From: Escherichia phage Lw1
DNA length: 64,000 nucleotides
Direction: 5' to 3' (one strand)
Sequence record: KC801932
Shown: positions 2,302 to 7,066 of the stretch, one piece after another
How positions within the stretch are numbered: position 1 is the stretch's first letter
How the letters are laid out: every line of letters starts with the position of its first letter
The notes under the pieces: model-generated
What the model saw: only the letters and a program-made list of their open reading frames with translations
Databases searched by the model: none
Told to the model about the DNA's origin: nothing
Translations under genes and position numbers: made by a program

Positions 2302-3967
2302 GTATCAGAATATTCTGTCGGTAGGGAATACCCCGATCGAACTTGAATTCGATACTGCAAAGAAAACCCTGATCACGGGTAAAAATGGTGGTGGTAAATC
2401 CACACTGATCGAAGCGTTGACGTATGCTCTTTTTGGTAAGTCATTTCGTGATTTAAAAGTCGGGCAACTGGTAAACAGTGTCAACAAAAAGAAATGTCTG
2501 GTTGAACTGGATATTGAATACGGGAAAGATTCGTACAAAGTCGTTCGCGGACAAAAGCCGAAAGTATTCGAGATCTGGAAAAACGGTGATAAGTTAGCAG
2601 AAGATTCAGCAGCGGGTGATTATCAATCTCAGCTTGAATCCATGCTCAATATTAACCTGGTTGGATTCAAACAGGTAATCGTTTTGGGTACTGCTGGCTA
2701 TACTCCATTCATGGAACTGAAAACACCGGATCGCCGTAAACTGGTTGAAGACCTGTTGTCGCTATCGGTTATCAGTGAAATGGATAAGCTGAACAAATCA
2801 TATGTCCGTGGTGTTAATCAGCAGTTGGATACCCTGTCAATGCAGGTTAACCACATCCAGCAGCAGATCGCTACACACCAGCGCTTCATTGATGAACAGC
2901 GAGCTAAAGCGAACCAGAACAACGCACGATACAAAGAGATCTACGATAGCCACGTTGAAACCGCTAAGAATATCAAAGCACAGCTTATGCAGTTGCAAGC
3001 GGAGATCGCAGAAACGGTGATCACTGGCGCAGACCGAACGGAAGATATAAACAAACTCCGTGATGGATATACGCGCCTCTCTATGACTGTAGAACAGTTT
3101 AAAAAGCTGGAAGTGATGTATCAGAAAGGTGGTGAGTGTCCGGCCTGTAAACAGGCGATTACGCCCACTCCTGAACGCATGGAAGAGATCGCAAACAACA
3201 TCAAAGCGGGTACGCAACGATTAACGCTGATCAAAACCAAACAGGACGAGTTGCAAGGCATTATGAACGAGTTGCTTCAACAGCAACGCGCACTGAATGC
3301 TATGAAAACGAAATACGAAGCCCTGAAAGGTACGCTGCAAAATGAAGTTGCCAACGCTAAACGCGCACAAGCGATCATGGAACAGGCAAGCGCGGAAGTT
3401 GTTATTGATGAAGAACCTGTTAAGCAGTTGCAACAACAGGAAGCAGATCTGAACGATAAACGTCAAGGATATGTGAAAGAAAAATATATCCGTGGTATCG
3501 TTACAGATATGTTAAAAGATTCGGGTGTAAAAGCCAGCATCGTAAAACGTTATATCCCGTACTTCAACAAGCAGATCGCATACTATCTGGATCTGTTGGG
3601 CGCTGACTACCAGTTCACGTTAGATGATGAATTCAACGAATCAATCAAATCACTGGGGCGCGATGATTTTAGTTACGCATCATTTAGCCAGGGTGAACGC
3701 GCACGAATCAACTTATCGATTCTGTTTACATGGCGCGACGTAACAAGCAAAGTTTCCGGCGTGGACCTGTCTCTTCTGATTATGGACGAAGTTTTCGATA
3801 ACGCTCTTGATAAAGAAGGTGCGTTTGCTGTAGGGGCTGTTCTGAATGGTATTGATGGTAATATCATGGTGATTAGCCACAACGATTTAGACCCTGGTGA
3901 TTTCGATCGTCATATCGTCATGGCTAAATTGGGGCGCTTCTCGAAGATGGAAATCAAGAAGTCTTAA
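2276..3967 (+). CDS. 46: Recombination endonuclease subunit gp46 (Rad50/SbcC-like ATPase)
   Basis: 563 aa; Walker A GKNGGGKST; coiled-coil middle with CPACK zinc hook; N-terminus matches remembered T4 gp46; GTG start. Confidence 0.9.
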   Translation: MKLNFKKIKYQNILSVGNTPIELEFDTAKKTLITGKNGGGKSTLIEALTYALFGKSFRDLKVGQLVNSVNKKKCLVELDIEYGKDSYKVVRGQKPKVFEIWKNGDKLAEDSAAGDYQSQLESMLNINLVGFKQVIVLGTAGYTPFMELKTPDRRKLVEDLLSLSVISEMDKLNKSYVRGVNQQLDTLSMQVNHIQQQIATHQRFIDEQRAKANQNNARYKEIYDSHVETAKNIKAQLMQLQAEIAETVITGADRTEDINKLRDGYTRLSMTVEQFKKLEVMYQKGGECPACKQAITPTPERMEEIANNIKAGTQRLTLIKTKQDELQGIMNELLQQQRALNAMKTKYEALKGTLQNEVANAKRAQAIMEQASAEVVIDEEPVKQLQQQEADLNDKRQGYVKEKYIRGIVTDMLKDSGVKASIVKRYIPYFNKQIAYYLDLLGADYQFTLDDEFNESIKSLGRDDFSYASFSQGERARINLSILFTWRDVTSKVSGVDLSLLIMDEVFDNALDKEGAFAVGAVLNGIDGNIMVISHNDLDPGDFDRHIVMAKLGRFSKMEIKKS

Positions 3968-4664
3968 ACTTACAGTTGTCAAAATGCCATCGTTTCATAT
4001 TGGTGGCATCACCAACTTTAGCGCAATGGGGGCAAGTTAATTGCTCCCTTTTCTTTTGTATTTTTCTGTCTGGGTTCTTGGTACAATATGGAATATGACT
4101 GTTCAAGTAATGCACTGTCGATTCTGTACCACAATGAGGACAAGAACCGCGCTCCGATACTACGTTTCTGTTTTTATGTGCTCGCATGACTCCTGCAAAT
4201 GCATTCACTTTCCCTTCATTGCCTGGCTTGTTCTTGCAGTTGTCGAAGTGCCAGCGGTTCATATTACCTACTAAGCCGGACGTATTGCAATGAGGACACG
4301 TAACCCTGTTCTGTTGAAGTTTGGCCTGTCTCATGCGTAAGCGTGTCTCTTCGCTGAACTCTTTTTGTTTCTGGGCTTCAAGTGCTTTTTCTTTTAACCA
4401 TCCATAGCGGCGGTTTGCTGTACGCGCAGACGATCGAGAAGTGCCGACTGTAAGCATGTTAGCAGCATAAATTAGTTTATGGTTGCCTGGATACATCTTA
4501 ACCAATAGCAGATGTGCTATGAAATGTTGACGTGCTGACAGTTCAACCAGATTTTCGGGATCGTCCGATCCTCCCATACATTTTGGAACGATGTGGTGTT
4601 TCTCTTTGTACTCTGCATCCGTTCCGGCAGTCATGAGTTGTTCGTAAATCTTATGATAATTCAT
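3954..4664 (-). CDS. Free-standing HNH homing endonuclease (Mob-like)
   Basis: HHIVPKCMGGSDDPENLVELSARQHFIAH HNH motif; C-terminal repeated CPHC/HFDNC zinc-binding modules; overlaps gp46 3' end on opposite strand. Confidence 0.8.
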   Translation of the reverse strand: MNYHKIYEQLMTAGTDAEYKEKHHIVPKCMGGSDDPENLVELSARQHFIAHLLLVKMYPGNHKLIYAANMLTVGTSRSSARTANRRYGWLKEKALEAQKQKEFSEETRLRMRQAKLQQNRVTCPHCNTSGLVGNMNRWHFDNCKNKPGNEGKVNAFAGVMRAHKNRNVVSERGSCPHCGTESTVHYLNSHIPYCTKNPDRKIQKKREQLTCPHCAKVGDATNMKRWHFDNCKFKTS

Positions 4665-4712: not shown

Positions 4713-4910
4713 ATGATTATGTTAGAACGAGAATTTGAATTGATGACCTCTCCAGAAGCGGAGAGGTTTTATCTTCATAACGAACTGTTGGAAGAAAAAC
4801 ACGTTGTCACTATGGAAGATGTCAAAGAAGCCTTTAAAGACAATCAGTTAGAGCTAACGCGAATACTGAATAATAAATCGTCTATGTGGTTTCTCGAAAA
4901 AATCTATTGA
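4713..4910 (+). CDS. Hypothetical protein (65 aa)
   Basis: Small acidic ORF; followed by hairpin at 4937. Confidence 0.3.
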   Translation: MIMLEREFELMTSPEAERFYLHNELLEEKHVVTMEDVKEAFKDNQLELTRILNNKSSMWFLEKIY

Positions 4911-4936
4911 CATCAGAACATAAATACCTTAAAGTT

Positions 4937-4969
4937 GCCCGTGTACTGAGTTGCACGGGCTTTTATTTT
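4937..4969 (+). terminator. Hairpin plus T-run (gcccgtgtactgagttgcacgggc ttttatttt)
   Basis: Inverted repeat followed by T-rich tract, immediately upstream of RBS GAGGAA and ATG 4982. Confidence 0.45.
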
Positions 4970-4981
4970 GAGGAACGGAAA

Positions 4982-6679
4982 ATGATTAACGAAAAAATGA
5001 CACACCGCGAAGCGTTGGAAATCTTAGGGGCCACGGGTACTGAATCCAAAGCTGAAATGTCCAAACTCTTCAAACGTGCTTCTCTGCGTAATCACCCCGA
5101 TCGTGGTGGTAGCACAGAACTCATGCAAAAAATTAACCAGGCATATGACGTAGTAACGAGAACAAACAGTTCTGGTGAAACTATGATGGATATGCGAGCG
5201 CGTCACGCAGCGAATAAAAAAGCGTGGGAAGAAAAACTGGATGCGTATTTTGTTGTTGCTAAGAACTATTTCAGCACGAAATTTAACGCACAGGAATTCG
5301 CTGAATACTTCACCAAATACACCGGACAGCCGACGACCTTCACACAGGAAGTCAAGAAAGATACAATTTCCGTATCTGCTGTGTTCCGTTTCACTTCTGG
5401 TGATGCTCACTTTGATTTCGCTTTCTACTGCAAGCCAGAAGAAGGTAAAGGTTTGATGTCTCCTGATGCAAGCGCATTGGGTAGTGTTTCTGTCAATACT
5501 CTGGTACTGGTTGGAACCAAAAAACATAAAATGGCAAGCCGTGAATATCAATGGGGCAAAAACCCAGATAAGATCACACCGGAAAGCCTGTTCCCGTCCA
5601 AGAAACTTGCATCAATTTTCAGCCCGACACAAAAGAACCTCAAGTTCAAACGTGCTGACTATATGACTTCTTTCCGCAAGCACTTAGACGCAGAAATCAG
5701 CGGCAATGATATCTATGTTCCTGTAGGCGACCTGAAAGTTCGTTTCTATCGTCATGTAATGATGCGTAAAGGTGCGTATGTGTTTAGTGCGGTATACGAC
5801 CCAGCGGTAAGTAAATTCCGTTCTGCTGCAAACCTTCGCGGAACTATGTTCGAAGACGAAGACGGCGCATGTTTGGATATGATTATCGACACTTTCAAAG
5901 AAATGCAGAAAGCAAAACCGAACGTTAACGGTATTGTCAGTATCATTGACAAGATGAACGCAGAATTCGCAGCGGGACACCGTTCAGCATCTTTCGTCAA
6001 ACGTATGGCACAGCAAGCAGCAGCACCGAAGCCGGAAGAAAAGCCGAAACGCACTGTTAACCGTATCAGCAAAGATGATTATTTCAACGCATTGAAACAA
6101 GCGGGTGCAACATTCCGTAGCAACTACGGTGAGTTTGATAACGGCGCTGGATTGACTTTCCACTTCAAGCGCGAGATCAGCAACCGTAAAGGCTTCTGGA
6201 GTTTCAGCAGTTTTAATTTCATGCACTCCGGTCAACGTCATGTTGAATGGTTGAAAGATATCGACATTGACGAAGACAGCAAAGGTGCAAGTATCGGTCT
6301 GATGGTTGATACTCTGAAACAGTTGCGTGGTGTTGCTGATTGGTATACTGCAAGAAAGATCCTGGAAGCGATGCGCGATAACTTCAAAGCTGGTAAGTTC
6401 TCCGCACCACACGTTAAGAAAGAAGCCGAACAGAAACGCACTGAGGCGCAAGCTAAGGACGAGTTAGGCGCACAGCCTACCAAACCCCATGAAGCGAAGA
6501 AAGAAGCCCCAGCAGTTGATAAGGCTCACGAGGCGCAAATGGCGAAAGAGAAAGCACAGATGAATGCAACTATTCGTTCTATGCTCTCCGCTCTGGTTAA
6601 AGCTGGACGCAAAGACACGCCGGAAGAAATTAAAAAAGCAGTTGATGAAGCAATCGCTCTTTGGCGCTTGAAACACTAA
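4982..6679 (+). CDS. J-domain (DnaJ-like) protein, 565 aa, with Lys/Glu/Ala-rich C-terminal tail
   Basis: N-terminal J domain with HPD motif (LRNHPDRGGS...INQAYDVV); start placed at ATG 4982 with GAGGAA RBS rather than the upstream GTG of the ORF track. Confidence 0.7.
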   Translation: MINEKMTHREALEILGATGTESKAEMSKLFKRASLRNHPDRGGSTELMQKINQAYDVVTRTNSSGETMMDMRARHAANKKAWEEKLDAYFVVAKNYFSTKFNAQEFAEYFTKYTGQPTTFTQEVKKDTISVSAVFRFTSGDAHFDFAFYCKPEEGKGLMSPDASALGSVSVNTLVLVGTKKHKMASREYQWGKNPDKITPESLFPSKKLASIFSPTQKNLKFKRADYMTSFRKHLDAEISGNDIYVPVGDLKVRFYRHVMMRKGAYVFSAVYDPAVSKFRSAANLRGTMFEDEDGACLDMIIDTFKEMQKAKPNVNGIVSIIDKMNAEFAAGHRSASFVKRMAQQAAAPKPEEKPKRTVNRISKDDYFNALKQAGATFRSNYGEFDNGAGLTFHFKREISNRKGFWSFSSFNFMHSGQRHVEWLKDIDIDEDSKGASIGLMVDTLKQLRGVADWYTARKILEAMRDNFKAGKFSAPHVKKEAEQKRTEAQAKDELGAQPTKPHEAKKEAPAVDKAHEAQMAKEKAQMNATIRSMLSALVKAGRKDTPEEIKKAVDEAIALWRLKH

Positions 6680-6739
6680 CTGATTGTGTTATACTGGGAA
6701 CTGTTGAAAAGCAGTTCCCTTTTTTATGAGGAAAATACT

Positions 6740-7066
6740 ATGAGTTGTCCAACATGGGCGCATTTTGAAAATTTGAAAGAAGGTACGCAGAAACGCGTGT
6801 ATATCAATTTGGGTTGGATTCCACCAACTGATTTTGAATTAGCCGTAATAATGGTTAATGCCAGCAAAGAGATCAGCGAAACTTTCGAATGGGAAAGACT
6901 TACTTTGCCTGTTCATCCAGGGTTCTTTATGGCCCGTGAAAAGTTCGAAGAAATGAAACGAGCGGTAGAATGTATCAATGGGTTGACTACGCCATCTTTA
7001 CGTATGCACTACCGGAACCTATTCACCCTGAAAAAAGCATGGGAAATCGCGGAGGTTGAATTATGA
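6740..7066 (+). CDS. Hypothetical protein
   Basis: ORF with GAGGAA RBS before ATG 6740; no recognised motif. Confidence 0.35.
   Translation: MSCPTWAHFENLKEGTQKRVYINLGWIPPTDFELAVIMVNASKEISETFEWERLTLPVHPGFFMAREKFEEMKRAVECINGLTTPSLRMHYRNLFTLKKAWEIAEVEL

Follow-up and report, generated by a model that had tools for sequence, protein, structure and literature searches.

The rki-type gene of Escherichia phage Lw1, a full-length orthologue of the RB43 DnaK interactor

The locus and its gene

The stretch of DNA analysed here (the window: 64,000 nucleotides of Escherichia phage Lw1, sequence record KC801932) is 97-98% identical to the DNA of phage RB43 and of the Citrobacter phages CfP1, Miller and Xman, and 98.6% identical to that of RB16; these identities assign it to Pseudotevenvirus, that is, to an RB43/RB16-like, T4-related phage. 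Its genes follow in the order gp55, 47, 46, an HNH homing endonuclease (on the minus strand), 45.2, a gene of the rki type, and then frd, td and nrdA/B. The rki-type gene, placed between 45.2 and the frd/td/nrdA block, occupies the same locus in RB43 and RB16. Its position downstream of genes 47 and 46 is as a first-pass annotation of this DNA had described it, and so is its lack of a T4 counterpart, the rki locus being absent from T4 (PMC3486835).

The gene (Table 1) encodes 565 amino acids and a stop codon, within a frame that is open, in the six-frame ORF list, from 4886 to 6679 of the plus strand. The internal ATG at 4982 is the real start, as the first-pass annotation had assumed, judged by the GAGGAA ahead of it and by the conservation of M1 and of an N-terminal 'MINE' in homologues. 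(A GTG at 4886 was rejected; it would yield a longer form overlapping gene 45.2, a promoter and a hairpin.) The gene is real: its codons differ from those of RB43 at 21 synonymous and 3 non-synonymous positions, and full-length homologues of its product reach down to 35% identity. By tblastn the product is 99.6% identical to its counterpart in phage Miller and 98.8% identical to that of RB16. PHROG 7739 covers positions 1-565 of 565 (1250 bits), and the PHROGs label for long and short forms alike is 'unknown function'.

The early promoter and the stem-loop that follows it, as read from the sequence, constitute a PeSL-like composite: the stem-loop would terminate transcripts of gene 45.2, and its 5' arm holds the predicted start of transcription. 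The promoter, the hairpin and the ribosome-binding site are all conserved in RB43 and RB16, and the hexamers of the promoter are those published for the early promoter of rki (TTGACA/TAAAGT; PMC3486835). The promoter of a second such composite overlaps the final codons of the gene; here the hairpin would terminate rki transcripts and the promoter would serve the next gene, with its ATG at 6740. A promoter-like site inside the gene, at 5339-5367, was discarded as a chance occurrence (6 sites found vs 5.3 expected).

Table 1. Positions in the Lw1 window of the rki-type gene, its flanking signals and the parts of its product
Feature	Position	Strand	Basis or description
Early sigma70-type promoter, TTGACA-17 nt-TAAAGT	4907..4935	+	Consensus scan, score 10 of 12
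GC-rich stem-loop followed by T-run	4937..4960	+	9 pairs, 6 G-C, then TTTTATTTT
Ribosome-binding site GAGGAA	4970..4975	+	Read from the sequence; 6 nt ahead of ATG 4982
rki-type gene, fused form (= RB43 ORF057w + ORF058w)	4982..6679	+	565 aa, 63.8 kDa, pI 9.5
J domain, helices I-III, residues 8-60	5003..5161	+	Pfam, PDB profile, AF2, Foldseek
HPD tripeptide, H38-P39-D40	5093..5101	+	In frame; H38Q inactivates Rki (PMC3486835)
Domain D2, residues 68-215	5183..5626	+	AF2: long helix, second helix, six-stranded sheet, short helices
Repeat domain R1, residues 216-350	5627..6031	+	AF2: helix, sheet, three helices; packs on D2
Codon 238, GAA (Glu); TAA in RB43, splitting the gene into ORF057w (Rki) and ORF058w	5693..5695	+	Direct comparison
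Repeat domain R2, residues 362-488, tandem duplicate of R1	6065..6445	+	hhalign, R1 profile, AF2
Predicted disordered K/A/E-rich linker, residues 489-512	6446..6517	+	No predicted structure; composition
C-terminal helical hairpin, residues 514-564	6521..6673	+	AF2 helices 514-541 and 547-564, pLDDT about 81-90
Second promoter-plus-stem-loop composite	6668..6719	+	TTGAAA-16-TATACT 6668-6695; hairpin with T-run 6696-6719

The J domain

The N-terminal part of the protein is a J domain by profile match, by the placing of its HPD and by predicted fold. Pfam DnaJ (PF00226) matches residues 13-60 (E 2e-5; 25.0 bits, slightly below the gathering cut-off of 27.8 bits), and a profile made from 20 homologues finds J domains as its only matches among PDB sequences, limited to query positions about 4-87 and headed by E. 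coli DnaJ (5nro_B, E 1.1e-8). The AF2 model has helices at residues 8-15, 23-36 and 45-60, with the HPD in the loop between the second and the third. Foldseek pairs this model with the J domain of Tim14 (2guz_A, probability 1.00, target TM 0.77) and with that of a polyomavirus (1faf, target TM 0.59). In an alignment of 138 sequences (137 relatives and the Lw1 protein) PF00226 is found in 120 (E <= 0.001), and HPD stands at the aligned position in 124. A 565-residue protein opening with an HPD-bearing J domain is what the first-pass annotation had proposed, and the open reading frame, the frame of residues 38-40, and the profile and fold matches all bear it out.

The resemblance to DnaJ stops there. 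DnaJ_CXXCXGXG and DnaJ_C find no Pfam match in the protein at E <= 0.1, a G/F region is absent as well, and the architecture of the AF2 model differs from that of the class A and B DnaJ/Hsp40 proteins. The Lw1 protein is a class C (type III) J-domain protein.

Architecture beyond the J domain

The AF2 model of the full 565 residues has a mean pLDDT of 78.6, and a sub-model of residues 68-350 has a pLDDT of 88.3 with a pTM of 0.82. Structure prediction had been suggested for the middle region at the outset, and it resolves that region into D2, R1 and R2. Near-invariant residues of D2 in the family described below are K183, P200, F204 and P205; toxicity of the RB43 protein requires residues 160-237 (PMC3486835). 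In R1, D226 is conserved in 99% of the family, and R257 and E291 in 100% of 137 members.

R1 is joined to R2 by a segment (residues 347-359) that is disordered in the AF2 model, and the two domains are, on the evidence of their alignment, a true tandem duplication: hhalign pairs residues 241-345 with 380-484 (probability 98.9%, E 1.3e-17), the family-wide R1 profile matches R2 (E 2.3e-11), and the order of predicted structural elements is the same in both. Extending the duplication to D2, as a third copy, was considered and dropped because hhalign finds no homology between D2 and R1 with either shallow or deep alignments (E about 0.1).

The part that follows R2 has pLDDT below 50 at residues 476-512, although DSSP still assigns helix to 476-488, which is the last helix of R2. 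What remains is the predicted disordered linker, in which the motif DELGAQPTKP (residues 493-502, nt 6458-6487) is kept down to a homologue of 35% identity. The C-terminal hairpin is conserved among the 565-residue forms.

The nearest folds are those of actin capping protein alpha/beta and of PsiB (about 9% identity, with 93-113 of 283 residues aligned); Med17 and the FP domains of Fbxo7 and PI31 score lower. CapZ and PsiB show no relationship to the Lw1 protein at the level of sequence, and the likeness of the models is only a distant one, at the level of fold, to scaffolds of protein-protein interaction; a specific function is not supported by it. (Foldseek of the full 565-residue model against the PDB returns, beyond J domains, only Mediator subunits, MRP1/2, PURA and RnlA, at low probability and high rmsd, which we treat as noise of a multi-domain model, and Pfam matches to DUF6282 and GUCT in the middle region, with E 0.04-0.1, are treated as chance.) The viral Foldseek library returns family members only, among them the J-domain protein of Aeromonas phage 65 and RB43 ORF058w.

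A family defined by D2 and R1

A profile of residues 68-350, with the J domain left out, was searched against 1.84 billion representative proteins and matches 305 of them at E <= 1e-3 and 177 at E <= 1e-10 (representatives at 50% identity). On these matches residues 68-350 define a family whose clusters at 50% identity number at least 305, and in which a J domain almost always lies directly ahead of the module. The median length of its members is 346 residues, and the matches mostly begin around residues 70-100. Those of the 138 aligned sequences that have no DnaJ or HPD match are mostly short (131-298 residues) and lack the N-terminal region; they may be fragments. At the other extreme, in each of ten atypically long members a DnaJ domain stands immediately upstream of the module; one of them (P0173) is a polyvalent protein of 1442 residues with 2'-5' RNA ligase, SprT-like and ART-PolyVal domains. 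One member of the family has around it a series of small open reading frames, all on the same strand and phage-like in arrangement, with a phage-encoded Cpn60/GroEL gene 1.5 kb away. Some are on contigs binned to Bacillota and Verrucomicrobiota, an assignment of host from metagenome-assembled genomes that is unreliable for phage-like contigs.

R2, the linker and the hairpin together extend only about 2% of members. We hold with moderate confidence that D2 and R1 together are the signature of a large, unnamed family of effectors of phages and mobile elements, of which the Lw1 protein carries the module intact and RB43 Rki is a nonsense-truncated allele lacking half of it, and that one lineage has gained R2, the linker motif and the hairpin as a regulatory addition of its own.

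What is established for Rki and Rki16

Rki ('RB43 DnaK interactor'), the product of RB43 ORF057w, was characterised by Perrody et al. 2012 (PMC3486835), who state that no functional J-domain protein encoded by a phage had been characterised before it. Residues 1-237 of the Lw1 protein are 100% identical to it (UniProt Q56BZ1), and beyond codon 238 the only amino acid changes between Lw1 and RB43 are S320G and H503Q. The presence of an Rki orthologue in the window is thus already-known biology: the gene is a full-length orthologue of rki.

In vivo the J domain of Rki can stand in for the DnaJ one, a capacity that is lost with H38Q; DnaK is recovered with Rki in Flag pull-downs, and its ATPase is stimulated (PMC3486835). 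Rki is monomeric and devoid of generic co-chaperone activity, and its toxicity depends on DnaK and worsens when DnaJ is missing (PMC3486835). A truncated protein, Rki(1-159), partly replaces DnaJ in vivo, and full-length Rki is toxic instead (PMC3486835). Recruitment of host DnaK, which the first-pass annotation had deduced from the HPD, is accordingly on record for a protein identical to Lw1 residues 1-237, by pull-down, ATPase assay and H38Q.

Transcript and protein both appear early in RB43 infection, and deletion of rki impairs growth of the phage (PMC3486835). The deletion is suppressed by dnaK mutations or by extra sigma32; extra sigma32 alone gives full rescue and overexpressed GroESL a weak one (PMC3486835), so that more GroEL does not fully explain the benefit to the phage. 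Rki stabilises sigma32, and pull-down of sigma32 by Rki requires DnaK; how binding of DnaK leads to stabilisation is left by the authors to an 'unknown mechanism' (PMC3486835). The further suggestion that the host chaperone system is redirected to a phage purpose is borne out by this DnaK-dependent stabilisation, taken together with the growth defect of the deletion.

The RB16 protein, Rki16, has been seen by western blot during infection and also stabilises sigma32, more weakly than Rki; it complements the RB43 rki deletion less efficiently, and is both less toxic and less potent (PMC3486835). A 2026 review repeats the account of Rki and lists phage class C J-domain proteins without any other known domain.

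Proposed function and its rivals

The Lw1 protein is very probably the full-length Rki orthologue, in its Rki16 form: an early, DnaK-engaging class C J-domain protein that would raise the level of sigma32. This identification is made because residues 1-237 are identical to RB43 Rki, because only 7 of 565 residues differ from Rki16, and because neighbouring genes and promoter are shared. The scheme that follows from it would have the gene switched on by an early promoter of its own, minutes into infection. Experiments on identical or near-identical proteins show what comes next: the HPD-bearing J domain docks on host DnaK and stimulates the DnaK ATPase, sigma32 accumulates, heat-shock proteins including GroEL rise early in infection, and the yield of phage improves, most clearly at low and at high temperatures. 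The link would be the non-J part, which turns the contact with DnaK into a block on the normal passing of sigma32 from DnaK to the FtsH protease. To this we add from the models that the effector may be a compact unit, D2 packed on R1, common to the whole family, to which the lineage of Lw1 would have added R2, the flexible K/A/E-rich linker with its conserved motif, and the helical hairpin.

The main rival would make sigma32 stabilisation a by-product. The job for which the family has been selected would instead be to disable or divert DnaK and to out-compete DnaJ, acting for example against chaperone-dependent host defences or on host proteostasis. The DnaK dependence of Rki toxicity and its worsening without DnaJ suggest just such a competition with DnaJ (PMC3486835), and the breadth of the family fits: the unit of J domain, D2 and R1 is spread over at least 305 clusters (at 50% identity), once within the polyvalent protein with its ART-PolyVal, SprT-like and 2'-5' RNA ligase domains. 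PMC12619734 cites bNACHT25, a defence sensor that depends on DnaJ. The supposed members from hosts outside the proteobacteria point the same way, but the binning on which they depend is not to be trusted for contigs of this kind. On the other hand, sigma32 by itself rescues the RB43 rki deletion mutant fully, which argues for the published model, and the pull-down of sigma32 by Rki, dependent as it is on DnaK, suggests that Rki acts specifically on the complex of DnaK with sigma32. Diversion of DnaK as the selected function is regarded as unlikely, and stabilisation of sigma32 is retained as the preferred reading.

A generic, DnaJ-like co-chaperone that brings phage proteins, still unfolded, to DnaK to be folded or assembled would also have a functional J domain, and partial replacement of DnaJ by Rki(1-159) in vivo is what one would expect of it (PMC3486835). 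That proposal is already largely refuted and very improbable: Pfam finds no G/F region, DnaJ zinc finger or DnaJ C-terminal domain, the PDB profile matches J domains only, and full-length Rki is toxic rather than complementing.

The nature of the K/A/E-rich segment bears on a different proposal, that the tail is a histone-like element binding DNA or the nucleoid and tethering DnaK to DNA. The segment is rich in lysine and alanine, and the protein as a whole is basic (pI 9.5). Histone H1-type tails are strongly basic. Residues about 476-527, in contrast, are 56% K+A+E with 11 K+R against 10 D+E, and the net charge of 20-residue stretches within them runs from -1 to +2, so that by composition the segment is a roughly neutral polyampholyte. 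Its predicted disorder and conserved DELGAQPTKP motif are more typical of a protein-binding site, and Pfam and PDB profile searches of the protein give no match to DNA-binding families. A histone-like tail is accordingly less probable still, and it is the sole label in the first-pass annotation without support. Of the low-complexity, highly charged end described there, the charged stretch itself stands, but it is not the end; the protein closes with the helical hairpin.

The fused form as the probable native one

The RB43 record divides the 1698 nt that match the Lw1 gene into two ORFs in the same frame, 057w (237 residues, 'similar to DnaJ homolog') and 058w. The difference at codon 238, TAA in RB43 and GAA in RB16, has also been reported (PMC3486835). 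Each of the 18 full-length cluster representatives returned is one unbroken protein, 561-573 residues long; three forms of 349 residues, ending after R1, are also among the cluster representatives returned. Among the 60 phage records listed, the gene is split only in RB43 and in one record with a fragmented match. Within R1 the RB43 stop comes after the first helix but before the first strand, and it precedes R257 and E291. Because it cuts through a folded domain that is conserved in the family, and does so ahead of these invariant residues, the RB43 split looks like a derived truncation, and the fused form of 565 residues appears to be the native one. That the gene is really two, 057w and 058w, and the single long frame an artefact, is the least probable reading of all: both RB43 records do have TAA at codon 238 and annotate two ORFs, but codon 238 is GAA in Lw1, nearly all the other records and representatives just described are unsplit, the stop interrupts a conserved domain, and the fused protein of RB16 has been seen by western blot (PMC3486835).

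Most of the functional data come from the RB43 protein, cut at codon 238, inside R1 and without R257 and E291, and the strong toxicity of RB43 Rki may for this reason not reflect that of the native full-length protein. R2, the linker and the hairpin probably tune or restrain activity, judging by a single comparison, in which Rki16, the fused protein, shows lower toxicity and potency than the truncated Rki of RB43.

Finding Rki again from raw sequence adds no new biology. What is added here is a modest lead, made up of the apparently native status of the fused form, the passage of the RB43 stop through a conserved domain, the internal duplication, and a broad family of J-linked modules. With it, further work could turn from the truncated RB43 allele to the conserved module and the protein at full length.

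Comparison with known J-domain proteins

The E. coli proteins DnaJ, CbpA and DjlA share with the Lw1 protein a J domain with its HPD and a basic helix II. Their other features (the G/F region, the zinc finger, the substrate-binding C-terminal domain, the membrane anchor) are missing from it. The large and small T antigens of polyomaviruses resemble Rki in strategy: they too are class C J-domain proteins of viral origin, and they hijack host Hsp70, as Rki does. Rki shows that phages, like polyomaviruses, have taken this course. In sequence the T antigens match the Lw1 protein weakly (1faf, E 3.7e-4), with the Foldseek match besides. They differ in belonging to eukaryotic viruses, and their non-J parts and their targets are unrelated.

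RB43 Rki shares with the Lw1 protein its J domain, its early promoter and, presumably, its interaction with DnaK. It differs in its stop at codon 238 inside R1, and so is without R257, E291, R2, the linker and the hairpin. RB16 Rki16 (UniProt D9ICB9, RB16p058), in contrast, likewise has 565 residues, 558 of them identical to those of Lw1, the seven substitutions being E123V, R419S, H503Q, E504G, A521D, K522R and A525S. GAA at codon 238, the promoter, the hairpin, the ribosome-binding site and the neighbours 45.2, frd and td are all common to the two loci, which differ in that the homing endonuclease upstream is another one in RB16 and the small ORFs downstream are not the same. Rki16 is the best experimental proxy for the Lw1 protein.

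Coding sequence of rki and its relatives

The published 237-aa Rki of phage RB43 is the product ended by a stop at codon 238 of the rki frame (positions 5978-5980 of L001, a stretch of record AY967407). This stop falls within a folded domain that is conserved family-wide, and it removes from Rki the residues R257 and E291, which are 100% conserved in the Rki family (that is, among proteins with the module spanning residues 68-350 of the Lw1 protein). R257 is absent from the annotated RB43 ORF058w as well, which begins at codon 261.

The K/A/E-rich linker of the 565-aa Lw1 protein is predicted to be disordered and is variable outside the segment DELGAQPTKP (general form [DE][LF]G[AS]QPxKP). On comparison of homologues, a motif of this type is kept even at 35% identity, and a role as a short linear binding motif is possible.

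Members of the family are also found in other contexts. In a 59-kb metagenomic phage-like contig (L002), the Rki-family gene lies 1.5 kb upstream of a Cpn60/GroEL homologue. (The latter is the second chaperone-related gene within one run of small same-strand ORFs.) P0131 and P0173, which are among the atypically long members, are polyvalent proteins holding a J domain plus the Rki module. In P0131 these occupy residues 986-1034 and 1054-1263, and the same chain carries 2'-5' RNA ligase, SprT-like and ART-PolyVal domains.

Features of rki, its surroundings and its relatives
Feature	Location	Position	Strand	Size
Mob-like HNH homing endonuclease	window, between gene 46 and 45.2	3954-4664	-	236 aa
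Promoter + stem-loop composite	window, upstream of rki	4907-4960	+
DELGAQPTKP motif	window, K/A/E-rich linker	6458-6487 (residues 493-502)
Promoter + stem-loop composite	window, downstream of rki	6668-6719	+
Rki-family J-domain protein	L002	8001-9038		345 aa
Phage-encoded Cpn60/GroEL homologue	L002	10599-12236
P0131, Rki family	MAG/metagenome contig			1442 aa
P0173, Rki family	MAG/metagenome contig			1931 aa

Surroundings of rki

The homing endonuclease upstream of rki contains repeated CxxC zinc-ribbon motifs. Its site is empty in RB43, whereas RB16 has a different endonuclease there, on the + strand. The Lw1 endonuclease gene and its counterparts in Cronobacter, Enterobacter and Klebsiella phages share 98.7-98.8% DNA identity, compared with only ~81-82% for the rki region of the same phages, and this disparity suggests recent lateral movement of the endonuclease.

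The gene downstream of rki is the orthologue of RB43ORF059w. A mechanical ORF list places it at 6686-7066 with a GTG start, but the ribosome-binding site and the RB43 annotation indicate ATG 6740 as the start (6740-7066). Reading from GTG 6686, which was rejected, would cross a terminator-like hairpin.

The two composites flanking rki share one order of elements: -35, -10, directly a GC hairpin, then a T-run, GAGGAA and ATG. Transcription from the upstream composite likely starts inside the 5' arm of its hairpin, which would accordingly terminate read-through transcripts, yet not form in those initiated at the promoter. Both composites are akin to the PeSL promoter/stem-loop cassettes of T4-like phages, which have been proposed to mediate modular gene shuffling (PMC2839356, PMC4122927).
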